Position numbers and translations under genes: made by a program
Notes under the pieces: model-generated
What the model saw: only the letters and a program-made list of their open reading frames with translations
What the model was told of the DNA's origin: nothing
The model's database searches: none
Part shown: one piece after another, positions 3,817-52,580 of the stretch
Layout of the letters: every line of letters starts with the position of its first letter
Numbering within the stretch: the stretch's first letter is position 1
Origin: Vicinamibacterales bacterium
GTDB taxonomy: Bacteria > Acidobacteriota > Vicinamibacteria > Vicinamibacterales > UBA8438
Reading direction: 5' to 3'
Assembly (NCBI GenBank): GCA_963662965.1
Contig: OY759970.1
Span: forward strand, 3,328,524 to 3,392,523
DNA length: 64,000 nucleotides

Positions 3817-4725
3817 ATGACGACACAGCGAACACTTAGACGTTCCGTCTCCTGCTCGGGTATCGGCCTACACTCGGGGCAGAAAGTCACCCTTCGACTC
3901 AAGCCTGCTCCGATCGATCACGGGATTCGCTTCAAACGACTCGATCTCGACGGTCTTGAGGTTTCCGCGACAGCTGAGCGGGTCGCGAGGATGAACTACG
4001 CGACCGAGTTGGCGCAGGATGCGGCTTCGGTTGGCACGGTCGAGCATCTGCTCGCGGCGCTGGTGGGACTCGGCGTCGATAACGTGAGCATCGAGTTGAA
4101 TCAGGCCGAAGTGCCGATCATGGACGGGAGCGCCGCGTCGTTCGTCTACTTAGTCCATGAAGCCGGTATCCACACGCTCAAGTCGCCTCGACGTTTTCTC
4201 AAGGTGGTGCGACCCATCACGCTGTCGCGCGGTGACAAGCGGATCGCGGTGTATCCGTCGGATTACTTCAAGGTCACCTACAGCATCAGCTTCGACCATC
4301 CGTTGCTGCGGCACCAATCCCGAACCCAACGTGTGACGGAGGATTCCTTCATCGAGGAGATCGCGCCGGCGCGCACGTTTGGTTTCCTCAAAGAGGTCGA
4401 ACAGCTTCGGCAAAAGGGGCTCGCCCTGGGTGGCTCGCTGGACAACGCGATCGTCCTGGGTGAGACAGGTGTCCTCAACGACTCGTTACGATTCGAGGAT
4501 GAGTTCGTGCGACACAAGATCCTCGACGTGATCGGCGACCTCGCGTTGGTCGGTCACCCGATCATCGGTCACGTTGTCGCGCACCGCGGCGGACATGCGC
4601 TCCACGCGAGATTTGCCCAGAAGATTCTTGATGATGTCGACGCCTGGCGGCTCGTCGAGTCGTCGGTTGACCCGGCGGACGACGCCCCCGCTTCGATCAA
4701 GGTCACCGTGCCCGCCAGCTCCTAG
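3817..4725 (+). CDS. lpxC: UDP-3-O-acyl-N-acetylglucosamine deacetylase
   Basis: MTTQRTL... N-terminus, GxGLHSG, PIMDGSA and HRGGHAL motifs. I prefer ATG 3817 over the TTG at 3793 in the ORF track. Confidence 0.92.
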   Translation: MTTQRTLRRSVSCSGIGLHSGQKVTLRLKPAPIDHGIRFKRLDLDGLEVSATAERVARMNYATELAQDAASVGTVEHLLAALVGLGVDNVSIELNQAEVPIMDGSAASFVYLVHEAGIHTLKSPRRFLKVVRPITLSRGDKRIAVYPSDYFKVTYSISFDHPLLRHQSRTQRVTEDSFIEEIAPARTFGFLKEVEQLRQKGLALGGSLDNAIVLGETGVLNDSLRFEDEFVRHKILDVIGDLALVGHPIIGHVVAHRGGHALHARFAQKILDDVDAWRLVESSVDPADDAPASIKVTVPASS

Positions 4726-4889
4726 TGGCCTGTAACAGCTGAATCAGTAACACTCCGCGGGCGTGGGGCATCCCGCCTGCCTGCGTTACTCCTCGGTCAC
4801 AAATGCCAGACTTTCTCCCTCGTCGCGCCTTGCCAGCTGGGTGCCGCGCGCCGCGGAGTGGTACTGATTCAGCTGTTACAGGCCACTAG
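4722..4889 (-). repeat. family A palindromic interspersed element, copy A1
   Basis: Arms 4722-4760 and 4851-4889 are complementary at 38 of 39 positions. Interior blocks are shared with A2-A6. Confidence 0.9.
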
Positions 4890-4893
4890 TGTC

Positions 4894-5317
4894 CTAGCCT
4901 CGAGCCACCGCTAACGGCGCCGTCGTCAGGTCGACACCAAGGTCGGACGCCAGGCGCTGGGCGAGGTCCATTTCGTCATCCGAGTCGTTCCAGCGAAACA
5001 GGATGTAGCGCCAGTTGATGAAACGGCACGTCGCGTCCAGACCGCTGTTTCTCGTCGGCCATGGCCCGCAGATTCACGAATGCGGCCTCGAGGTCGCCCC
5101 GCTGGCGGTACTTCCCGTAGTGCTTCGGTATCGCACCGTCGAGCGAGAACGTGACTTCGTCGATGCCGGTGTGCACCAACTGCCGTGCGCGCTCCTCACC
5201 GAAGGCGAGGCCGTTCGTGCTGGTGTAGAGATAGATGTGCGGGAAGCGAGACTTGATGTACTCGCACATCGACGAATTTGTATGAGACGTTGAATACGCG
5301 GCGCCGGTCCGCTGCAC
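4894..5317 (-). pseudogene. radical SAM enzyme fragment (no CxxxCxxC core, one frameshift, truncated C-terminus)
   Basis: The ORF reads ...YLYTSTNGLAFGEERARQLVHTGIDEVTFSLDGA...YRQRGDLEAAFVNL.... The continuation FINWRYILFRWNDSDDEMDLAQRLASDLGVD lies in another frame after the T-run near 5021-5023. No N-terminal cluster-binding region is present. Confidence 0.55.
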
Positions 5318-5446
5318 GATCGCATCCCACGCCTGCTGGTCGCCGCACAGGCATGCTTCGATGAGCGCGTCGGTCGAGTCAGGGGAGGGGACGAGCGGAT
5401 CTACGGCCTCGAAGGATTGTACAATGCCGCTTCCGCGACATTATCC

Positions 5447-6688
5447 ATGGCAGGCTTCGCGTTTTCCGATATCGGTATGGCGTGCGACGGCGTCGATCTG
5501 GCGCCCGTCGTCGCGGCTGAGAGGTCTCCGCTCTACGTCTACAGCGCGGCGCTCATCGAGGAGCGCTACCGCGCGCTGGATGCCGCGTTCGGCCACTATC
5601 CGCACCGCGTGCACTATGCGCTCAAAGCCAACTCGACGCTCGCGATCGTCCGTCTGATCGGCGGCATCGGCGGGGCGGTCGACGCGAATTCCGGCGGCGA
5701 GATCGCGGTGGCCCTCCGGGCGGGGATCGACCCGCAGGACGTCGTGTTTACCGGCGTCGGAAAAACCGACGCGGAGCTCGAGCAGGCGGTCGCCCTCGGT
5801 GTCCACGCGATCAATGCCGAGTCGGCGGGGGAGTTGGCCCGCATCGATGGGATTGCGACCGCTCGGGGGCAACGCGCCCGCGTCGCGCTTCGGGTCAATC
5901 CGGACATCGACGCGATGAGTCATCCCGGGATCTCGACCGGGGGGCGCGCGCACAAGTTCGGGGTGCCGCTCGAGGAGGCCGGTGCCGTCTTCCGTGAGGC
6001 AACGAGTCGCCGCGGCCTGAATCTGGTCGGCGTCCATGCGCACGTCGGATCGCAGATCACGACGCTCGACCCCGTGCGGCGGATGGCGGCGGCCATCGCG
6101 ACGTTCGCGCAAGCGCTCGTCGCCGACGGCATTCCGCTTGACTATCTCGATCTTGGTGGCGGGCTCGGCATTTCGTATGACGGGGGACCGTCGCTACCGG
6201 TCGGGGACTACGCACGGACGATCGTCGACGCCGTCGCGCCGACCGGATTGAAGTTACTGGTCGAGCCGGGGCGTTGGATCGTGGGGCCGGCGGGCGCGCT
6301 GCTCGCGACCGTGGTGGATGTCAAGCCGCAGTTGTCGGGCCGCTATTTTGTAGTGCTCGACGCCGGGATGACGGAGTTGATGCGGCCTGCGTTGTACGAC
6401 GCCGTTCACCGAATCGACCCGCTGGTCCCGCGGCACGGTGCGGACGTCACCTGCGACATCGTCGGACCGATCTGCGAGACCACGGACGTGATTCGACTCG
6501 GCCATGCGCTGCCGCTTCCCGAGGTGGGCGACGTCCTCATCGTGCGCGACACCGGCGCGTACGGGTCGGCGATGGCGTCGAACTACAACCGGCATCCGCT
6601 TCCGGCCGAGGTGCTGATCGAGAACGGCCAGTCACGGCTCATTCGCCGGCGGCAGAACGTCGACGATCTGCTGGCGTGCGAGGAGTGA
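5447..6688 (+). CDS. lysA: diaminopimelate decarboxylase
   Basis: Motifs SPLYVYS, ALKANS, HVGSQI, GGGLGI, EPGR, CE..D. The start is uncertain; I prefer ATG 5447 to 5417. Confidence 0.92.
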   Translation: MAGFAFSDIGMACDGVDLAPVVAAERSPLYVYSAALIEERYRALDAAFGHYPHRVHYALKANSTLAIVRLIGGIGGAVDANSGGEIAVALRAGIDPQDVVFTGVGKTDAELEQAVALGVHAINAESAGELARIDGIATARGQRARVALRVNPDIDAMSHPGISTGGRAHKFGVPLEEAGAVFREATSRRGLNLVGVHAHVGSQITTLDPVRRMAAAIATFAQALVADGIPLDYLDLGGGLGISYDGGPSLPVGDYARTIVDAVAPTGLKLLVEPGRWIVGPAGALLATVVDVKPQLSGRYFVVLDAGMTELMRPALYDAVHRIDPLVPRHGADVTCDIVGPICETTDVIRLGHALPLPEVGDVLIVRDTGAYGSAMASNYNRHPLPAEVLIENGQSRLIRRRQNVDDLLACEE

Positions 6689-6700
6689 TCGAGGACAGAC

Positions 6701-7297
6701 ATGTTGGTGGCCATCGAAGGATTGGACCAGAGCGGGAAGGAAACCCAGGCGCAGCGGTTGCGCGACCACGTCAGAGCGGAAGGACACAAGTCCCGCGTCG
6801 TTTCGTTCCCCGACTACGGAACCTCAATCGGCGAAGAGATCGCCCGTGCGCTCCAGGGCGAGCGAGAGTATGGACCGGAGGCGATGCAGCTCCTCTACGT
6901 CGCGAACCGGTTCGAGCGCAAGGCTGACATCGACCGGTGGCACGACGCCGGCCTCGTGGTGCTGTTCGACCGCTACGTCGCGTCGAGCATCGCCTACGGC
7001 GAGGCGCAAGGGCTCGACCCGGCGTGGCTGACGACGCTTCAGGTGTATCTACCCCAACCGGACCTCACGCTCCTGCTCGACATCGCGCCCGAGACCGCCG
7101 TGAGCCGCAAGACGACCGGGCGCGACCGGTATGAGCAAGATCTGACGATGCTCCAGCGTGTCCGAGCAAGCTACCTCCGCCAAGCCGAACATCCCCAATG
7201 GATGCGCGTCGACGGAGAGCAGCCGAAGGATTCGGTCGCGGCCGCGCTCGCGACAGCCATCGCGCCGCACCTAGCGGCGGGCAGGAGCCCGCGGTGA
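6701..7297 (+). CDS. tmk: thymidylate (dTMP) kinase
   Basis: IEGLDQSGKETQ P-loop, DRY motif, about 198 aa. The last 4 codons plus the stop lie in repeat A3. Confidence 0.88.
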   Translation: MLVAIEGLDQSGKETQAQRLRDHVRAEGHKSRVVSFPDYGTSIGEEIARALQGEREYGPEAMQLLYVANRFERKADIDRWHDAGLVVLFDRYVASSIAYGEAQGLDPAWLTTLQVYLPQPDLTLLLDIAPETAVSRKTTGRDRYEQDLTMLQRVRASYLRQAEHPQWMRVDGEQPKDSVAAALATAIAPHLAAGRSPR

Positions 7298-7457
7298 AAG
7301 TCGCGCTGCATTCGACCGACGATGCATCCGGCAAGGGCCCTTGTTGGTCTTCCATGTAGCGGGGTCGCATACTGTCGGTATTCTCCCTCGTCCCGCCTTG
7401 CCAGGCCGGGCGCCTCGCCGGTCTCGGTGCCACGCGCGACTTTCACCGCGGGCTCCT
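7283..7457 (-). repeat. family A element, copy A3
   Basis: Perfect 24-nt arms (7283-7306 / 7434-7457). Core CGGTATTCTCCCTCGTCCCGCCTTGCC. Confidence 0.9.
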
Positions 7458-8201
7458 AAGATGAGCTGACGGGCCGGTGGCCGGCGCCACGCTGAGGGCC
7501 CGCACGCTTCTCGCCCCCGCGTCGACCAGCACGGACGCACACGCCTCGACGGTCGCTCCGGTCGTCACGACGTCGTCTACCAAGAGGATGCGACGTCCGC
7601 GAATGGCCGCGGCGGTGCGGCGTCCGCCGCGCCATTCCCTGAGCCTGAACGCGCCGCCGACGGCGCGCAGACGGTCGCCGCGCGCCAGTACTGCCTGTGG
7701 GCGCGTGTGTCGCGTGCGGCGGAGCGCGTTGACGACCGGCGAGTCGAGACCGGCCGCCAAGTCGGCCGCTTGATTGAACCCGCGTCGCCAGCGCCGCAGC
7801 GGATGCAGCGGCACCGGCACGATGAGGTCGGTGTCCGAGAGCCAAACCTGGCCCGCGGTGCGCATCAGCTGCGTGAGTGGGACCGCGAGCGTTCGCCGGC
7901 CACCGTACTTGAGCGCATGCACGATCGCGCGCAAGGTTTCGTCATGTAGACTGACCGTTCGGCGCGGGGTTGTGAGTCCGGCGGAGCGGGTGCAGGACAC
8001 GCAGTATGCGGGCGGGGCTGCCGCGGCCCACAACGGGATGGCGATGCCGTAGAGATCGCAGACCGGTGGTTCGATTCGTGCGACCCGCTGCCAACAGTCG
8101 ACGCACATCCTACCGCGAGAGGGCGCAACCAGTAGTTCCTCGCAGACCGCGCACCGTGGTGCCCACGCCACCGCCAGCAGGGCGTCGACGACGTGTCGCA
8201 C
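7443..8201 (-). CDS. comF: ComF family phosphoribosyltransferase-like protein
   Basis: N-terminal CxxC...CxxC, and a C-terminal PRTase motif ILLVDDVVTTGATV. I chose GTG 8201, because upstream of it the long ORF overlaps rsfS. The last codons lie in repeat A3. Confidence 0.8.
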   Translation of the reverse strand: MRHVVDALLAVAWAPRCAVCEELLVAPSRGRMCVDCWQRVARIEPPVCDLYGIAIPLWAAAAPPAYCVSCTRSAGLTTPRRTVSLHDETLRAIVHALKYGGRRTLAVPLTQLMRTAGQVWLSDTDLIVPVPLHPLRRWRRGFNQAADLAAGLDSPVVNALRRTRHTRPQAVLARGDRLRAVGGAFRLREWRGGRRTAAAIRGRRILLVDDVVTTGATVEACASVLVDAGARSVRALSVAPATGPSAHLRSPR

Positions 8202-12090: not shown

Positions 12091-12466
12091 AGATTTCCCT
12101 GAAGAGGTCGTAGTTCTGTTGAATATTAATGTCGTTCGGGGCGAGGTCGAGCGCCTCTTCGTAGGCCTCGAGCGCCTCGTCGAACATCCCCTTCTGCTCG
12201 TACGCGATGCCGAGGTTGTTCCAGGCCGCAGGATACGACGGATCGATTTCCGTGGCGCGCTTCCAGCGATAGGTCGCCTCATCCCAGAGCTCGCGCTGCG
12301 CCACTTTCATTCCGAATTCGACCTGCGCTCGCGCGTCGTCACGCACATCAGCCGAAAGGGTGGGCGCGGAAGCGCCAACGAGGGTGATGGCAAGAACAGT
12401 CAGAATGGTCGCAGCCCGTAGTGAAAGCCCCACTGCATTCGACCGGCGCTGCATTCCGTCTGCCAT
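12062..12466 (-). CDS. small secreted TPR-repeat protein
   Basis: Signal-peptide-like LRAATILTVLAITLVGASA, then TPR motifs (AWNNLGIAYEQKGMFDEALEAYEEAL). Candidate starts are 12466, 12454 and GTG 12433, all of them inside repeat A4. Confidence 0.65.
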   Translation of the reverse strand: MADGMQRRSNAVGLSLRAATILTVLAITLVGASAPTLSADVRDDARAQVEFGMKVAQRELWDEATYRWKRATEIDPSYPAAWNNLGIAYEQKGMFDEALEAYEEALDLAPNDINIQQNYDLFREIYDRLSENDR

Positions 12467-12583
12467 CGTTGCTCCTCGGTCAAATACTGCCGGTATTCTC
12501 CCTCGTCACGCCTCGTCCTGGCCGGCCGCTACCTTATTCAACTGGGGTCTCGATGCAACGCGGGGTTTCACCACGGGCTGCGA
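12409..12583 (-). repeat. family A element, copy A4
   Basis: Imperfect 34-nt arms homologous to those of A3. Core CGGTATTCTCCCTCGTCACGCC. Confidence 0.85.
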
Positions 12584-16444: not shown

Positions 16445-16716
16445 TCAGACGGGGCGTGCGGCGACCAAGCTTAGACTGGGGGAATATCGCGCTCGGCCGA
16501 ACGGTCGAGCCTCGCGCGCTTTCCCCAGACCCCCTCGCTCGCTCACTCGTGGGGACCCCGAATGCCCCACTCCGTTCGCTAGCGTATGGTGTGGGACAGC
16601 CGAGTCATTCGAAGTACGATCAGGGCGCGCACGGCGCGCCCCCGCCGGCACGGAGTGGGGCGAAAGGGTCCCCGCGAGTGCTGGCCGGTGGGGTCGGGGC
16701 CGTAGGCCCCGTCTAG
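16445..16716 (+). repeat. family B element B1 (X hairpin + full Y module)
   Basis: X hairpin 16476-16528. Internal arms 16544-16575 / 16650-16680. GGGCGCGC-ACG-GCGCGCCC at 16623-16641. Terminal GGGGCC-GTA-GGCCCC at 16696-16710. Confidence 0.9.
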
Positions 16717-16719
16717 ATT

Positions 16720-18129
16720 ATGGTCACAATCATCGGCGGTGGATTGGCCGGCAGCGAGGCGGCATGGCAGGCCGCTTCGCGCGGCGTCCGGGTTTCCCTT
16801 CACGAAATGCGACCGGTGCGCATGACGGCGGTGCATCGTACCGACCGATTGGCGGAGCTCGTCTGTAGCAACTCGTTCCGCGGGGACAAGCTCGAGCATG
16901 CCGTGGGGCTTCTCAAAGAAGAGATGCGGCAGCTCGACTCCCTGGTCATGCGTGTGGCCGACGCGACCCGAGTGCCGGCGGGAGGGGCGTTGGCGGTCGA
17001 CCGCGATCGATTCGCCGAGGGGGTGAGCTCGGCACTCCACGCCGAGCAGCGGATCGAGATCCATCGGGAGGAGGTCGACCACCTTCCAGAGCCGGCTGGT
17101 ACGACCAAACCGGTCATCGTCGCCACCGGACCGCTGACGTCGCCGCGACTGTCGGCCGACGTCACCGCGCTCATCGGTCGTGAGCAGCTGTACTTCTTCG
17201 ACGCGATCAGTCCGATCGTGCACGCAGAGTCGATCGACCACGGGAGAGTGTTTCGGGCGTCGCGCGCCGGACGCGGGAAGCCTGTCGAGGACGCCGCGCC
17301 TGGACGCGCATGCGGGGACGACACAGGAGACGGTGATTACCTGAACTGTCCGATGACCGCCGACGAGTACGGTCGCTTCTATGACGCGCTGACCACGGCC
17401 GAGCTCGCCGAGGTGCACGATTTCGATCGAACGCCGTTCTTCGAGGGGTGTCTCCCGATCGAAGTGATGGCCCATCGTGGTGTCGACACGCTTCGGTTTG
17501 GACCGATGAAGCCGGTTGGCCTGGTCGATCCGAGCACCGGCCGGCGGCCGTACGCGGTGGTCCAGCTCCGCCAAGACAACCTGGCGGCCGATCATTTCAG
17601 CCTGGTCGGGTTTCAGACGCAGCTCAAGTGGCCAGAGCAACGGCGGGTGCTCCGTCTCATCCCGGGACTCGAGCACGCCGAGTTCGTACGACTCGGCATG
17701 ATTCACCGCAATACCTACATCAACGCGCCGACCGTACTCACACCGACGTGGCAAATGCGGAGCCGGCCAGACGTGTTCTTTGCCGGCCAGCTCTCCGGCG
17801 TCGAGGGATACGTCGAGTCTGCCGCGTCGGGTCTTGTCGCCGGCATCAATGCCGCCGCCCTCGCGCGCGGCGAGGTGAGCCGCGCGCTTCCCCGCACGAC
17901 AGCGATTGGCGCGCTGGGGTACTACGTGTCGCACGCGGCCGCCGAGAACTATCAGCCGACAAACATCGCGTACGGTCTGATCCCGTCGCTCGACAACCCG
18001 CCGCGCGGCCGTCAGGCGAGGCGCGGGGCGCTTGCGGCCCGCGCCCTGGCCGACCTGGCCGCGTGGCGGTCGCGCGGGTGGGGGGCGGACCATGATCAGA
18101 CCAGGGGAATATCACCCTCGGTCGCATGA
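16720..18129 (+). CDS. trmFO: methylenetetrahydrofolate-tRNA-(uracil54-C5)-methyltransferase
   Basis: VTIIGGGLAGSEAAWQ FAD motif and Gid/TrmFO-like length. The last 12 codons are encoded by repeat B2. Confidence 0.92.
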   Translation: MVTIIGGGLAGSEAAWQAASRGVRVSLHEMRPVRMTAVHRTDRLAELVCSNSFRGDKLEHAVGLLKEEMRQLDSLVMRVADATRVPAGGALAVDRDRFAEGVSSALHAEQRIEIHREEVDHLPEPAGTTKPVIVATGPLTSPRLSADVTALIGREQLYFFDAISPIVHAESIDHGRVFRASRAGRGKPVEDAAPGRACGDDTGDGDYLNCPMTADEYGRFYDALTTAELAEVHDFDRTPFFEGCLPIEVMAHRGVDTLRFGPMKPVGLVDPSTGRRPYAVVQLRQDNLAADHFSLVGFQTQLKWPEQRRVLRLIPGLEHAEFVRLGMIHRNTYINAPTVLTPTWQMRSRPDVFFAGQLSGVEGYVESAASGLVAGINAAALARGEVSRALPRTTAIGALGYYVSHAAAENYQPTNIAYGLIPSLDNPPRGRQARRGALAARALADLAAWRSRGWGADHDQTRGISPSVA

Positions 18130-18306
18130 CGGAGTCGCGGGCGCTTCCCCCGGACCCCCCTCGCTCGCTTGCGTATGTTGGGCGTAGCCGGCTTGTTCGA
18201 AGTACGAGCGGGGCGCGCAGGGCGCGCCCCAGCCGGCACGGAGTGGGGCAAATGGGGTCCCCACGAGTGCCGGCGGCGGGGTTCGGGGCCGCAGGCCCCG
18301 TCTAAG
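18094..18306 (+). repeat. family B element B2 (X + Y, with a 37-nt internal deletion relative to B1)
   Basis: Collinear with B1 except for loss of the left internal arm. The terminal hairpin is present. Confidence 0.9.
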
Positions 18307-18318
18307 TAAGACGGACTC

Positions 18319-31382: not shown

Positions 31383-31572
31383 CTAGTGGCCTGTCCAAGC
31401 CAAAGCGACAGCGCTCCGCGGGCGGGGCATCCCGCAAGGGCTGGCGTTATGACCTCGCCTGGTGGGGTCACAAATGCCCAATTTGCTCCCTCGTCGCACC
31501 TTGCGGGGGCCGGGCGCGTCTGTCGATCAGCGACCACGGACTGCTGTCGATTTGGTTCGGACAGGCCACTGG
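31383..31572 (-). repeat. family A element, copy A2
   Basis: Same termini and interior blocks as A1. Over the 31-nt arms there are 26 Watson-Crick pairs plus 3 G-T pairs. Confidence 0.9.
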
Positions 31573-37494: not shown

Positions 37495-37556
37495 GGCGCG
37501 CACGGCGGCGCCCCCGCGAGTGCCGGCGACGAGGTTCGGGGCGGTAAGCCCCGTCT
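37494..37556 (+). repeat. family B truncated Y module (B4)
   Basis: GGGCGCGCACGGCGGCGCCC...CGCGAGTGCCGGCG...GGGGCGGTAAGCCCCGTCT. Confidence 0.75.
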
Positions 37557-37561
37557 GGGTA

Positions 37562-38095
37562 ATGATGCGGATCGAGATCGAGGTCGACGGGACGATGCAC
37601 GACGTCACAATCGATGCGATGACCAGCGCGCCGGGGCGCTTCCTCGTCTCCTGGGGCGGGACGACGCATGAAGTCGATGCACGCGTGGTCGAGCGCGATC
37701 GGCACGGGATGCTGCTGTCGCTCGTTCGGATGGGCGGCGATGCTACGAGTCGACAAGTCCGTTGCAGCGCGGTCGAGCGCGGGACGATGACGGTGAGGGC
37801 CGCCGGGGTCGATCACCGCGTCGTGATCAACGGGAGTCGTAGGCGGGTCGACCTCCCAGAGGCCGGCGATGGGGGCGGAGGTGTGTCCCGGTTGAAGGCG
37901 CCGATGCCAGGCAAGGTGGTCCGTGTCCTGGTCGCGCCGGGGGACGATGTCGACGCACGACAGCTGCTGGTCGTGGTCGAAGCGATGAAGATGGAGAACG
38001 AGCTGACCGCGGCACGTGCCGGTACCGTGACCGAGGTGCCGGTCAGCGAGGGGGACTCGGTCGAGTCGGGCCGGCTCCTCGTGGTGATCGAGTAG
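37562..38095 (+). CDS. biotin carboxyl carrier (biotinyl/lipoyl domain) protein
   Basis: C-terminal APMPGKVV...EAMKMENE biotinylation motif. ATG 37562 is the first ATG after repeat B4. Confidence 0.8.
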   Translation: MMRIEIEVDGTMHDVTIDAMTSAPGRFLVSWGGTTHEVDARVVERDRHGMLLSLVRMGGDATSRQVRCSAVERGTMTVRAAGVDHRVVINGSRRRVDLPEAGDGGGGVSRLKAPMPGKVVRVLVAPGDDVDARQLLVVVEAMKMENELTAARAGTVTEVPVSEGDSVESGRLLVVIE

Positions 38096-42357: not shown

Positions 42358-45320
42358 TGTTGCTCCCTCGTCACGCCGTGCACGGGCCCGGCGCGATCTG
42401 TGCCTGTCTCGTCCTCTGGGCGGGCCCGGCGGCGGCCGGGGCGGAGGTCGACGAATTCATCGGCCAGCGTGTGGTCGAGGTCGAGTTCGCCACAGATGGG
42501 ATCCCGATTAACGACCCCGCCGTTCGCGAGCTGGTGGAAACGACCGCCGGCGAGCCGCTCGCGATGCGCGAGGTCCGTGAGAGCTTGGCGCATCTCTTCA
42601 GCCTCGGTCGCTACGGCCACGTTGCGGTCGACGCCTACCCACGCGCCGGCGGTGTGGCGCTGCTGTATGAGCTGAGGCCGTTCGAGCTCGTCGAGCGCAT
42701 CGAGCTCTCCGGTAATCGGGTGCTCGCCGCCGACGACGTGCGGCGCGTCGTCGTCCAGCGCCACGGCGAGGTCTTCCCCGCCAGCGCGGCCGCCGCGGTG
42801 GCCGATACCGTGCGCGCGTACTACGCGGAGCGCGGTTTTCTGTCACCGCGGGTCGACGCGGAGCTGCGCGGGTCGGCGACCGAGCGCACCCTTCGCTTGA
42901 CGATAGTTGCTGGCGCGCGCGCCCGCGTCAATCGGTGGTTCATCACCGGCGTCGCCTCGGCGTTGCTCAACACGCGGCTGCGAGCTCGTCTGGGCCTCGT
43001 CGACGGCGACGTCTACGACGGCGCGAGGCTCGATCAGCGGTTGAGCGAGTACGAGGGCGAGCTCCGCGCGCTGCAGTACTACGAAGCGCGTCTCTCGCAC
43101 ACGGTGGAGCGACGCACAGACGCGGACATCGACGTCCGTTTGAACATCCTGCGCGGACCGCGCATCACGGTGACGCTGAGCGGCGACGAGGTGCCGGACG
43201 CGCGGCTCGGCGATCTGGTGCCGGTCGGACGCGAGGCGAGCGTCGACGAGGACTTGCTTGAGGATGCCGACCGACGGATCGCGGCGCACTTGCGGTCGCT
43301 CGGCTACCGCGACGCGGACGTGACGCACACGGCCGACGGGACCGCGGACGAGCTGTCGATCGTCTTCGCGGTGACCCGCGGCCCGTTCTATCAGGTGGTT
43401 GCCGTGCGGATTCGAGGCAACGCGAGCGTGCCGACCGAGGTGCTCCTGCCGGTGGTCAACATCACGTCTGGCGATCCGCTCATTGTCTCCGACGTGGACG
43501 CCGGGTTGGCCGCCATCGAGGAGCGCTACCAGCAGCTCGGCTATGCGACCGTGCGCGCGACCAGAACCTTCGCCGACATCGCGACCGGTGGCGCTGCGGG
43601 TACCGTGATGCAGACCGTCGATATCGACATCGTCGAAGGGCCGCGGATGACCATTGCCGCCTTGGTGTTCGACGGGGTCGAGGCGTGGCCGTTTGACAGA
43701 CTCGAGGAGACGGTCGCCGCACGTATCGGCGAGCCTTTCTACGGACCGCAGGTGAGCGACGACCGCGATGCGCTGCTGTCGCTCTATCTCAACGACGGGT
43801 ACGAGCAGGCCGTGGTGGTCGTCGAGCCGCAGTTTGCGGACGACCTGCGCACCGTCGACCTGGTCTTCCGCGTCGACGAAGGGCGTCAGGTACTCGTCGA
43901 TCACGTGTTGATCGTCGGTAACCGTCGGGTCGACTCCGAGACGATTCGTGGCGAGCTCGCCCTCGCGCCCGGCGACCCGCTTGGTCTCGACGACGTCGCG
44001 GAGACCCGTCGCCGGCTCAACGCGCTGGGGATGTTTCGTGGACTCGATATCCGGGAGTTTAGCCATGGTTCTGTCGACCGACGCGATGTCATCATCGAAG
44101 TGGAGGAGGCGCCGGCGACGACGCTGGCGTACGGCGGCGGGCTCGAAGTGTCGCAGCGGATTCGGCGTGACTCGGGCGACGAGGGAAGCGCCGCGGTGGA
44201 GCGGATCGAGTTTGCGCCGCGCGGATCGTTCCAGATCGGGCGCCGCAACCTGTGGGGCAAGAACCGGTCGATCAACTTGTTTACCCGTGTGAGTGTCCGG
44301 CGTAAGAACGATCCATCCGAGCCGGGTTCGGCTGACGCGGCCCGAACGCTTGGGTTTAACGAGTACCGGGTGTTGGGGACCTATCGCGAGCCGCGGTCGT
44401 TCCGGCTGCGCTGGGATGTGCTGATGTCGGGTTACGTGGAGCAGGCGATTCGACCCGGGTTCGATCTGTTCACCCGCGGTGTCACGGCACAGGTGGTGGC
44501 GGGATCCGGTGATAGGACGAGCACGACGCTCGGCTACCGCCTGGGGAGCAACGACACGTCGAATCGACAGCTGGACCCCGAGGACAGCAATATCGTCGAC
44601 CGACTGTTTCCGGAGGTGCGACTGTCGTCATTCCGGCTGAGCCGGCTTCGGGACACCCGCAACGATCCGTTCGATCCGACACGCGGCACGGTCCTCACCG
44701 CCGAAACCGAGCTCGCCGCTCGCTCGATCGGGTCCGCGGTCGGGTTTACCAAGACATTTCTGTCCGGTTCGTTCTTCCGCGAGCTGCGCGACGCGTCTCG
44801 TCTCGTGTTTGCCGCCAGTGCACGTGTCGGTCTGGCGTGGGGTTTTCCGCAGACGTATCATCTCGAGGGCCCCGGCGGACCGATGGAGGTGTCGCAGACG
44901 CTCGACCTGCCGATCAGCGAGCGCTTTTTTGCCGGAGGGGATAACACCGTGCGTGGATTCGCCCTCGACCGCCTGGGCGATCCGCGTGAGGAACCGGGCG
45001 GCACCATCGATCAGGACGGCTTTCCGCAGGGCGGTAACGCCATGCTCATCTTTAATACCGAGCTACGTGTGCGGCTGACGCGCGCCGTCGGACTCGTGAC
45101 GTTTCTCGACGCCGGGAACGTTTATGATGATGTGCAGCACGTGAGCCTGCGTCGTATCCGCGGCGGCGCTGGCTTCGGGGTACGGTACAGTTCGCCAGTC
45201 GGACCGATTCGCGTCGACCTCGGCTTCAAGCTCGGTGAGCGGCACTTCTTTGGTGACGAGACGAGTCGGACGCAAGAACCGCTCACCGCGCTTCACATCA
45301 GCATCGGCCAAGCGTTTTAG
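42357..45320 (+). CDS. Omp85-family outer membrane protein assembly factor (BamA/TamA-like)
   Basis: Signal peptide, several POTRA-like units, C-terminal barrel with RGF/GGD-type motifs (FFAGGDNTVRGF) and a terminal ...ISIGQAF. ATG 42357 overlaps the tamB TGA. Confidence 0.85.
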   Translation: MLLPRHAVHGPGAICACLVLWAGPAAAGAEVDEFIGQRVVEVEFATDGIPINDPAVRELVETTAGEPLAMREVRESLAHLFSLGRYGHVAVDAYPRAGGVALLYELRPFELVERIELSGNRVLAADDVRRVVVQRHGEVFPASAAAAVADTVRAYYAERGFLSPRVDAELRGSATERTLRLTIVAGARARVNRWFITGVASALLNTRLRARLGLVDGDVYDGARLDQRLSEYEGELRALQYYEARLSHTVERRTDADIDVRLNILRGPRITVTLSGDEVPDARLGDLVPVGREASVDEDLLEDADRRIAAHLRSLGYRDADVTHTADGTADELSIVFAVTRGPFYQVVAVRIRGNASVPTEVLLPVVNITSGDPLIVSDVDAGLAAIEERYQQLGYATVRATRTFADIATGGAAGTVMQTVDIDIVEGPRMTIAALVFDGVEAWPFDRLEETVAARIGEPFYGPQVSDDRDALLSLYLNDGYEQAVVVVEPQFADDLRTVDLVFRVDEGRQVLVDHVLIVGNRRVDSETIRGELALAPGDPLGLDDVAETRRRLNALGMFRGLDIREFSHGSVDRRDVIIEVEEAPATTLAYGGGLEVSQRIRRDSGDEGSAAVERIEFAPRGSFQIGRRNLWGKNRSINLFTRVSVRRKNDPSEPGSADAARTLGFNEYRVLGTYREPRSFRLRWDVLMSGYVEQAIRPGFDLFTRGVTAQVVAGSGDRTSTTLGYRLGSNDTSNRQLDPEDSNIVDRLFPEVRLSSFRLSRLRDTRNDPFDPTRGTVLTAETELAARSIGSAVGFTKTFLSGSFFRELRDASRLVFAASARVGLAWGFPQTYHLEGPGGPMEVSQTLDLPISERFFAGGDNTVRGFALDRLGDPREEPGGTIDQDGFPQGGNAMLIFNTELRVRLTRAVGLVTFLDAGNVYDDVQHVSLRRIRGGAGFGVRYSSPVGPIRVDLGFKLGERHFFGDETSRTQEPLTALHISIGQAF
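42358..42405 (-). repeat. family A core fragment (A6) embedded at the tamB/Omp85 junction
   Basis: TTGCTCCCTCGTCACGCCGTGCACGGGCCCGGCGCG matches the A2 core TTGCTCCCTCGTCGCACCTTGCGGGGGCCGGGCGCG at 29 of 36 positions. Confidence 0.6.
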
Positions 45321-45960
45321 TGCGCTGCTGTCGGCCCTCCTGTGGGCGGCACCGCTCGGAGCCGTTGCCCAGAGCCTCGACCGCATCGTGGCCGTCGTCG
45401 CCGGCCACGTCATCTTGGCCTCCGACGTGAGGGCCTTCCTCGAGTTCGGCCTCATCGAGGTCGAGGCTTCTGGCTCTGTCTCTGACTCTGAAGAAGACGA
45501 GCGCACGCGCGCCGGATGCGCCCTGACGCGGCTGATCGAGCGACGTCTCGCGCTCGACGAGGTCGACCGATATCGGGTGGCCGCGCCGCGGCCAGAACAG
45601 ATCGATCGCGAGCTCGCTGCCCTCCGCGGTCGCTTCAGCGATGAGGAGGCGTTTGCGGATCTCCTGGCGGCGGTGGGGCTCGGACTGCCGGACCTCAGGC
45701 AGATTCTGCGGGACAATGTCCGGCTGGAGGCGTATCTCGCTGGACGCTTTGGTTCGGCGGATCGGCTGAGTGAGTCGGAGCTGCGCGCCTACTACGCCGC
45801 CAACCGTGACGACTTCACCGACGCGGGGCGCGGCGTCGCGTTCGACACGGTTCGTGCGCAGGTCCAAGCCCGGCTGTGGGCGGAGCGGCGCGCGGCCCTC
45901 GTCGAGAACTGGACTGCCGGTCTCGCTCTCCGCGGGGACGTGACCCGGTTTGAGCCATGA
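45235..45960 (+). CDS. periplasmic SurA N-terminal-domain-like chaperone
   Basis: Signal-like LSALLWAAPLGAVAQS, then DRIVAVVAGHVILASDV and helical repeats. The start is uncertain (GTG 45235, TTG 45250 or GTG 45253) and all candidates overlap the Omp85 3' end. The stop lies at the edge of repeat B3. Confidence 0.55.
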   Translation: MSGTSLVTRRVGRKNRSPRFTSASAKRFSALLSALLWAAPLGAVAQSLDRIVAVVAGHVILASDVRAFLEFGLIEVEASGSVSDSEEDERTRAGCALTRLIERRLALDEVDRYRVAAPRPEQIDRELAALRGRFSDEEAFADLLAAVGLGLPDLRQILRDNVRLEAYLAGRFGSADRLSESELRAYYAANRDDFTDAGRGVAFDTVRAQVQARLWAERRAALVENWTAGLALRGDVTRFEP

Positions 45961-46113
45961 TCAGACCGGGGGAATATCGCGCTCGATCGAGCAACGGAGT
46001 CTCGCGCGCTTCCTGGTCAGACGGGGCCTGCGGCTCCGAACCCCGCCGCCGACACTCGCGGGGGGCCCCTTTGCCACGCTCCGTGCCGGCGGGGGCGCGC
46101 CGTGCCCGCCCTG
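45959..46113 (+). repeat. family B element B3 (X module followed by an inverted Y module)
   Basis: The X module is collinear with B1/B2. 46017-46110 is the reverse complement of the B1/B2 Y module. Confidence 0.88.
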
Positions 46114-46261
46114 ATCTCAGACTCCCCCATCCGGGCTCAGCGAGAGCGATTGTTTCCCGGCCTGCGTGGGTGCCGGTCGGACATATCCCGAAAGAAACCG
46201 TCTGCCTTTAGCGAGACGAAGCACCCCTGTATCTGAGGGCGGCTGGATGTTTCCCGAGGCG

Positions 46262-52109: not shown

Positions 52110-52124
52110 CAGCCATCTCATAAA

Positions 52125-52250
52125 GGCGCCGGCATTCGGCCGCCGATGCATCCCGCCAGGGGCGGCGTTGGGCGTTGCATGAGCGCGGTCGAATACTACC
52201 GGTATTCTCCCTCAGTCTTTGGCCGGGAGCGATATTCCCCTGGTCTGATC
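52125..52250 (-). repeat. family A element A5, fused to a family B X-module end
   Basis: Core CGGTATTCTCCCTCAGTCT, followed by the reverse complement of GATCAGACCAGGGGAATATCG at 52230-52250. Confidence 0.8.
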
Positions 52251-52580
52251 TTGGCCCCATCCGAAGTAGGCGAGGGCGACTAGCAGCGCGCTAAATCCGG
52301 CGCGCGCCAGTTGGGGCGCGAGCAAGAGCTCACCGTAGACGTGCGGATCATTGTGGAGGCTGATCGACTGAAGCCCGAGGAGGCCGCTGACGGCCAGCGC
52401 CAGTCCGCCGGGGAGCGAGACCCGCACCAACGCCGCGGCCAGCGCGAGGACGCCGCCCGAGAGCATCCGCCACAGGTTGGCCCACCACTCGAGCGTGCCC
52501 GAGCCGATGAGGTCGGCGACACCGACGACAACGTCGTACACGCCGTAGACCAACATCCCGAGCGCCGCGGCTCTCAGCAT
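52212..52580 (-). CDS. small integral membrane protein (about 4 TM)
   Basis: 122 aa, hydrophobic. The last 14 codons (QDQTRGISLPAKD) lie in repeat A5. Confidence 0.5.
   Translation of the reverse strand: MLRAAALGMLVYGVYDVVVGVADLIGSGTLEWWANLWRMLSGGVLALAAALVRVSLPGGLALAVSGLLGLQSISLHNDPHVYGELLLAPQLARAGFSALLVALAYFGWGQDQTRGISLPAKD

Follow-up and report, generated by a model that had tools for sequence, protein, structure and literature searches.

A probable MITE with a CTAG target-site duplication at the lpxC 3′ end of a Vicinamibacterales bacterium

Results and Discussion

The lpxC 3′ end carries a long inverted repeat

The analysed window, a stretch of 64,000 nucleotides from a Vicinamibacterales contig, carries lpxC near its left end, followed by the inverted repeat named A1 and by the decayed remnant of a convergent gene. 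LpxC was recognised through 7788 homologs with PF03331, the nearest non-self protein being 89-90% identical. The ATG at 3817 is our choice of start codon, the open reading frame list beginning at TTG 3793. The convergent remnant was read by three-frame translation, and its match to the Pfam Radical_SAM model was weak (E = 0.002, under the curated cutoff). In close relatives, the gap between lpxC and lysA measures only 130-150 nt, and in the window this is where the radical-SAM remnant lies; the closest ortholog, locus L119, holds a radical-SAM trace that has decayed further. The features at the A1 site are as follows (coordinates, strand, feature and basis).

3817..4725, + strand: lpxC (UDP-3-O-acyl-GlcNAc deacetylase), with its TAG stop at 4723-4725; PF03331 homologs
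4722..4725, no strand: left copy of the target-site duplication, CTAG, including the lpxC stop; family flank 4-mers and uninterrupted orthologs
4726..4885, + strand: A1 element proper, 160 bp, non-coding; nhmmer E = 5e-28 and five ortholog loci without the element
4726..4760, no strand: left hairpin arm, 35 nt within the element; repeat search
4768..4852, + strand: core module of ~85 nt with inner stem, internal loop and mini-hairpin; contig loose ends, depth and covariation
4851..4885, no strand: right hairpin arm; repeat search
4886..4889, no strand: right copy of the target-site duplication, CTAG; sequence and family flank 4-mers
4894..5317, - strand: frameshifted radical-SAM gene remnant, convergent with lpxC; three-frame translation, with the last-frame stop CTA at 4894-4896

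The first-pass annotation had described near-perfect 39-nt arms at 4722-4889, and this was borne out by a repeat search, which returned arms at 4722-4760 and 4851-4889 that are complementary at 38 of 39 positions (97%) and separated by 90 nt. The 30-nt arm sequence occurred only at these two places in the window, against 0.00 occurrences expected from shuffles. The 168-nt unit was predicted to fold at -109.2 kcal/mol, compared to -59.4 +/- 4.3 kcal/mol for its shuffles (z = -11.5), and its opposite strand at -106.1 kcal/mol (z = -10.7). The termini of A1 are TGGCCTGT...ACAGGCCA. The element is devoid of coding capacity, as the sole overlapping open reading frame, of 53 aa, enters out of frame from lpxC. 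The same annotation had set the end of the right arm 5 nt from the stop of the radical-SAM gene; that stop (CTA, 4894-4896) was confirmed in the last frame of the remnant, 4 nt beyond the right arm. Before the insertion, the stops of lpxC and the radical-SAM gene were 4 nt apart (TAG TGTC CTA).

A1 was inserted into a CTAG site

At its outer end each arm has CTAG (4722-4725 and 4886-4889), and these 4 bp form a direct repeat that is itself palindromic. Taking the commonest termini of the family as anchor (type I, CAGCCCGTGG...CCACGGGCTG), we tabulated the four bases outside each end in 55 copies. CTAG was found on both sides in 23 of these 55 type-I copies, while the identical flank pairs that are not palindromic were all direct (ATAG/ATAG, TTAG/TTAG, TGAA/TGAA and CTGG/CTGG) and inverted-type pairs numbered 0. 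A1 is therefore bounded on both sides by a target-site duplication of 4 bp, CTAG, whose left copy holds the lpxC stop, so that the stop is outside the element. The near-perfect 39-nt arms thus result from the inverted ends of the element together with the palindromic CTAG. The earlier statement that the lpxC TAG at 4723-4725 falls within the left arm is correct, since the open reading frame ends there, and can be refined: the stop sits in the duplicated CTAG and the element proper spans 4726-4885.

Orthologous contigs were compared in which LpxC was 85-90% identical and the order uvrA-lpxC-lysA-tmk was the same. The element was absent at lpxC in all five loci of this kind (L119, L120, L122, L124 and L125), and in L120, L122 and L125 the lpxC stop reads ...GC TAG C..., i.e., an intact CTAG. 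When A1 and one CTAG were taken out, the collinearity of the window with L119 extended through the stop into the 3′ flank. The comparison of related lpxC 3′ ends proposed at the outset thus defined an empty site in five orthologs and a 4-bp CTAG duplication, and in these relatives the sequence is not a conserved lpxC 3′ UTR, which had been put forward as the alternative to a mobile unit. No allele lacking A1 (a 164-bp skip) was detected among the contigs of eight DNA runs spanning both junctions, and hence the insertion is fixed in the population that carries this genome, with no sign of recent mobility at lpxC.

A1 belongs to a dispersed family

A profile built from 43 copies returned five significant copies in the window, all on the + strand, with match ranges 4723-4887 (A1), 7283-7458, 12411-12581, 31384-31543 and 52119-52213, the last being truncated. 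Copy boundaries were set by local alignment of the left flank with the reverse complement of the right flank; boundaries based on minimum free energy were dropped on account of spurious pairing within the flanks. The copies other than A1 are as follows.

7285..7455, + strand: A2, type-I termini GAGCCCGCGGTGAAAG; E = 1e-29; flanks GCAG / CTAA, a degenerate duplication
12412..12580, + strand: A3, type-I termini CAGCCCGTAGTGAAAG; E = 4e-36; flanks GTCG / CGAA, degenerate
31387..31568, + strand: A4, A1-type termini; E = 2e-16; CTAG at 31383-31386 and CTGG at 31569-31572; arms 83% complementary
52119..52213, + strand: truncated copy with the left arm and part of the core; E = 3e-12; abuts a fragment of an unrelated repeat family

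The location of five out of five window copies on the + strand contrasts with the mixed orientation relative to genes elsewhere, but has a two-sided p of ~0.06 and could be due to chance. In the arm interior, A1 and A4 differ at ~10 of 18 positions and self-complementarity is kept in each copy. A marginal core-like match was also observed at 42360-42382 (E = 0.058), within the overlap of two long + strand open reading frames, which is probably a chance hit or a relic.

Outside the window, a strict core pattern was found in at least 118 genome stretches of the genome collection, mostly from metagenome-assembled genomes of Vicinamibacterales, often with many copies per chromosome. Further hosts of the core were Bryobacterales, Terriglobia, Nitrospirales, Nitrospinota, Gemmatimonadota (Palauibacter), Rariloculus, Myxococcales and Chloroflexota, and the habitats of core-bearing genomes comprised sponges, fens, groundwater, soil and sediments. 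The family occurs in many genomes of Acidobacteriota, Nitrospirota, Gemmatimonadota and Myxococcota. In metagenomes that hold the A1 locus, near-identical A1-type arms were present at other loci as well, and no match to A1 was retrieved from plasmid and phage collections. Short forms of ~100 nt, with the same core and quite different, shorter arms, were observed in Nitrospirales/Nitrospinota (L002, L005, L031 and L111) and in uncultured Acidobacteria (L008, L040, L089 and L105); CTAG flanks are not obvious in the Nitrospirales short form, GGGAGGCCCA...TGGGCCTCCC. The literature searched on MITEs of Acidobacteria or sponge symbionts, on CTAG-target MITEs and on IS1182 with CTAG contained no description of the element at A1. 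A1 is an element of an ordinary kind, and its family seems not to have been reported before.

Type-I copies share their termini with an IS5/IS1182-like insertion sequence

In a Vicinamibacterales chromosome (L094, 1565-3032), a 468-aa transposase with the Pfam domains DUF772 and DDE_Tnp_1 lies between type-I termini that are 1,468 bp apart. This unit reads CTAG, CAGCCCGTGGTGAAAAC...CACCACGGGCTG, CTAG, its right end being given also as GACTTTCACCACGGGCTG. The best NCBIfam models for the transposase were IS1182 (155.8 bits vs. a cutoff of 270) followed by IS5, both under cutoff, and the protein was only 48-52% identical to annotated relatives. A metagenome scan with it confirmed 540 relatives, and in approximately 50 insertion sequence (IS) copies with both ends, the length was 1,460-1,520 bp, the ends were CAGCCCGTGGTGAAAGT and CTAG stood on both sides. 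An IS annotated as 'IS5 family' on plasmid pLB1 (AB244976.1) measures 1,463 bp, encodes a transposase 48% identical to that of L094, and has homologous ends (CAGGCCGTTGACGAAGTC) with a CTAA duplication.

Type-I copies, including A2 and A3, share with this IS only the ~17-bp ends, and the interior of the IS is devoid of the core. Their identical termini and CTAG duplication identify the type-I small elements as non-autonomous derivatives of this IS group, whose 4-bp duplications follow YTAR. A1 and A4 have the core and the CTAG flanking in common with them, but their ends (TGGCCTGT...) differ from those of the IS: TGGCCTGTAA compared to CAGCCCGTGG agrees at approximately 5 of the first 10 positions, a divergence also evident from the A1 ends TGGCCTGTAACAGC set against CAGCCCGTGGTGAAAGT. 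A1 resembles the IS group in its CTAG/CTAG flanks, which fit the 4-bp YTAR/CTAG duplication, and differs from it by the lack of a transposase gene. A partner for A1 was sought by pairing termini 0.1-4 kb apart, by searching all loci for the transposase with tblastn and through the termini of the IS relatives, and A1-type termini around a transposase gene were found neither among the ~50 IS copies nor in the 1.15 Mb of fetched loci. The window itself encodes no transposase of the L094 family. From the shared duplication and architecture, we infer that A1 was moved by a related DDE transposase.

That A1 was placed by insertion and not by local evolution is shown by its target-site duplication, by the orthologous sites that lack it and by the IS-shared termini. 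Moreover, A1 is small and non-coding and has inverted repeats as well as dispersed copies. We therefore consider it very probable that A1 is a MITE, namely a 160-bp non-coding derivative of a DNA transposon, inserted into CTAG, with duplication of this target, by a DDE transposase encoded elsewhere. The target at lpxC would have consisted of the TAG stop and the base before it, with which the final sense codon ends, so that duplication would regenerate the stop and leave the LpxC protein unchanged. It is because the CTAG duplication regenerated the stop that the latter appears to lie inside the palindrome.

Copies of the family lie at gene ends

The first-pass annotation had also suggested that the unit is repeated or mobile and that its insertion is exactly at the ends of genes, and the distribution of the family agrees with the CTAG duplication and the five empty lpxC loci on this point. 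In 32 of 65 well-bounded copies, the neighbouring long open reading frame stops in the duplication or no more than 30 nt into the element, and in a further 10 of the 65 the neighbouring stop lies at most 60 nt outside it. CTAG occurs 29 times in the window, compared to ~207 times expected from base composition, an approximately sevenfold under-representation, and at 8 of these 29 sites the TAG serves as stop codon for a long, GC3-rich open reading frame. Insertion at gene ends is thus accounted for by the rarity of CTAG in this GC-rich genome combined with the large share of CTAG sites that are stop codons, while insertions inside genes would presumably be lost, leaving copies at gene ends. 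The apparent 'gene-end targeting' would accordingly be a matter of target-site choice, a rare CTAG being enriched at stops and the stop being regenerated.

The flanking genes were arranged as (-,-) in 19 cases, convergently in 17, as (+,+) in 10 and divergently in 6, and no fixed orientation of the family relative to genes was found. This mixed orientation suits an element that is tolerated at 3′ ends rather than an orientation-specific signal. A second example in the window is provided by tmk (6701-7297), which runs four codons into A2 and has its TGA stop (7295-7297) in the terminal repeat of that copy. The C-terminus of its product, HLAAGRSPR*, compares with HLPAAS* or similar in orthologs, RSPR* being derived from the element.

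Elsewhere, elements were observed clustered head-to-tail at shared CTAGs (L094, 806-3032; L047, ~7650-7830; L087, ~860-1140; L180, ~1100-1210), either as an A1-type copy followed directly by a type-I copy or as IS copies that occupy the CTAG at the end of a small element. Once regenerated, the CTAG target seems to attract further insertions.

The element is transcribed with lpxC and lacks the U-tract of an intrinsic terminator

A different explanation is that the element works mainly as an RNA structure for its neighbours, serving as a bidirectional terminator or 3′ stabiliser in the gap between lpxC and the radical-SAM gene, and that its repetition reflects selection for this role. We regard this as possible but rather unlikely. 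It would fit with the great stability of the hairpin on both strands, with the compensated divergence of the arms between copies and with the preference of the family for gene 3′ ends, where convergent gaps outnumber divergent ones by 17 to 6. That preference, however, is already accounted for by CTAG targeting, close relatives lack the element at lpxC, and the evidence for insertion given above speaks against local evolution of such a signal.

As in intrinsic (Rho-independent) terminators, a GC-rich stem-loop follows directly after the stop in a convergent gap. In contrast to these terminators, A1 has a 39-bp outer stem in a unit of 168 nt with a large structured interior, and the tails that follow the hairpin (TGTCCTAGCC on the + strand and GGAGCTGGCG on the - strand) contain a U-tract on neither strand. 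A terminator scan of 4400-5500 gave 0 sites. Likewise, a promoter scan at A1 found none; an outward promoter in the core was rejected, as the candidate -10 lies in the covarying hairpin and is missing in several variants, the scan also being negative.

With regard to transcripts, lpxC was covered at a depth of 2-6 in Logan contigs from four metatranscriptomes. Three RNA contigs (4370-4777, 4437-4747 and 4568-4747) continue from lpxC past its stop and enter the left arm, and the element is therefore co-transcribed with lpxC. RNA contigs over 4951-6500 were absent from the four metatranscriptomes, which would suit the RNA explanation; however, the assemblies are undirected and of low depth and are interrupted at repeats, and so this absence is no evidence of termination. 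A transcript 3′ end at the element is possible.

Pairing of the arms copy by copy gave 134 G-T mismatches compared to 199 A-C and 336 others, i.e., no RNA strand signal, which lends no support to the RNA explanation. Given the mixed orientation across the family, the hairpin is best seen as a consequence of the architecture of the element, not as a dedicated lpxC signal. If A1 is a MITE, it would be transcribed as the beginning of the lpxC 3′ UTR and would yield, as a by-product, a stem-loop predicted to be very stable, which might hold up 3′ exonucleases, hinder read-through or be a substrate for a double-strand RNase.

An ~85-nt core is conserved between unrelated arms

In metagenomes holding the A1 locus, the depth over the core (4768-4852) was 75 to ~1,200 times that of the flanks, with a summed word depth of up to ~17,000 compared to ~14. 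Contigs had loose ends at 4765/4768 and at 4852/4853, beyond which many different sequences adjoined, indicating that a core of ~85 nt is shared between different arms. The same core occurred in combination with no fewer than four or five arm types that are unrelated to each other. It was better conserved than the arms, which differ greatly among copies and stay self-complementary.

Two mini-hairpin pairs at positions left free in the search pattern covaried: pair 10-16 was T-A in 67 copies, C-G in 33 and G-C in 12 (97% Watson-Crick), and pair 8-18 was T-A in 92, G-C in 8 and A-T in 6, whereas shifted controls were mostly 2-6% paired, with one at 65%. In an explicit 17-pair structure of the core, 83% of cells were paired compared to 74.7% after shuffling (0 of 500 shuffles reached this value), although most copies were gathered by a pattern that fixes part of the core, and the copies share a common descent, which makes the shuffle control overstate the significance. 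Eleven of the 17 pairs had changed on both sides, and slid controls were 25-57% paired. Copies outside the core-pattern selection kept the inner stem and the hairpin, while the pyrimidine-rich loop tracts varied. RNAalifold, run on 43 copies aligned by MAFFT, recovered the structure in part only, because the arms of different subfamilies are out of register, and was replaced by the per-copy arm pairing and the explicit structure.

Such conservation and a covarying fold are not obviously needed by a purely selfish cut-and-paste element. One explanation would be that the core is a functional module, acting as RNA or single-stranded DNA and repackaged between different termini, that either promotes transposition (e.g., as a host-factor or transposase-accessory site) or insulates the host against damage by insertions. 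We consider this unlikely. The variety of arm types, the lack of the core in the IS partner and the two-sided pair changes are consistent with it, the last subject to the kinship and selection of the copies noted above. Against it, the mini-hairpin of A1 itself is weakened, with 3 of 5 pairs, neither an orientation preference nor a strand signal was seen, and no known analogue ties a core of this kind to transposition. Nor did Rfam 15 give a match: at gathering scores the whole window yielded only a tRNA, and at E <= 10 the region 4600-5000 yielded nothing meaningful. In the stronger form of the proposal, the core would be functional structured cargo, captured repeatedly by different transposon ends and spread across phyla as a transposition booster or as a built-in insulator, terminator or stabiliser; we hold this to be quite unlikely. 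If true, the core would make insertions at gene ends harmless or useful.

Three further ideas were rejected: peptide coding in the core, as the arms vary and a consistent start codon is missing, and an integron attC site and a retron, each having the wrong architecture and no associated gene.

Comparison with known small repeats

Bacterial MITEs that lie in 3′ UTRs and fold into long hairpins include the Correia elements of Neisseria, the enterobacterial ERIC/IRU and the pneumococcal RUP. The A1 family resembles these MITEs (review, PMC2229807) in its size of ~100-200 bp, non-coding nature, terminal inverted repeats and TA-containing target duplication, and also in its many intergenic copies, often co-transcribed with the upstream gene and foldable into a stem-loop. 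It differs from them by a lack of sequence similarity, by a 4-bp CTAG duplication instead of TA, by its hosts, which are Acidobacteriota and other environmental phyla, and by the combination of one core with several unrelated termini.

It is extremely improbable that A1 is a palindrome of the REP/REPIN type, mobilised in single-stranded form through a REP-associated tyrosine transposase (RAYT) rather than a DDE enzyme: a target-site duplication is present, which tyrosine (HUH) transposition is not known to make, GTAG or CGTC tags are absent near A1, the type-I copies have the same termini as a DDE insertion sequence, and the element has 160 bp with a large asymmetric core in place of a 20-40-bp palindrome doublet. 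The likeness lies in the extragenic position, the high copy number and a long hairpin with compensated changes, as in REP/REPIN elements (PMC3733652, PMC2817692).

With A1 read as a MITE, recognition of its family would help to avoid mis-called gene ends, as for tmk, which ends in a copy, in this genome and in its many relatives, for the most part uncultured Vicinamibacterales and other environmental or sponge-associated bacteria. It would also explain assembly breaks and account for long post-stop hairpins that might otherwise pass for terminators or new RNAs. The wider interest is modest and lies in one structurally constrained core that is combined with unrelated ends in several phyla.

A second repeat family in the window

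A second, unrelated repeat family was observed at 16465-16720, 18090-18309, 37507-37562, 45946-46116 (- strand) and 52218-52263 (- strand), with full copies of ~170-260 bp and shorter fragments. Its ends are GATCAGACCNGGGGAATATC... and ...CCCCGCGAGTGCCGGCGGCGGGGTTCGGGGCCGCAGGCCCCGTCT. In one copy the first motif recurs in inverted form at the far end, and for this reason the family is probably another MITE. Within 52119-52263, the fifth copy of the A1 family is cut at 52213, precisely where the fragment of the second family starts, which suggests a nested insertion or a deletion between mobile elements.
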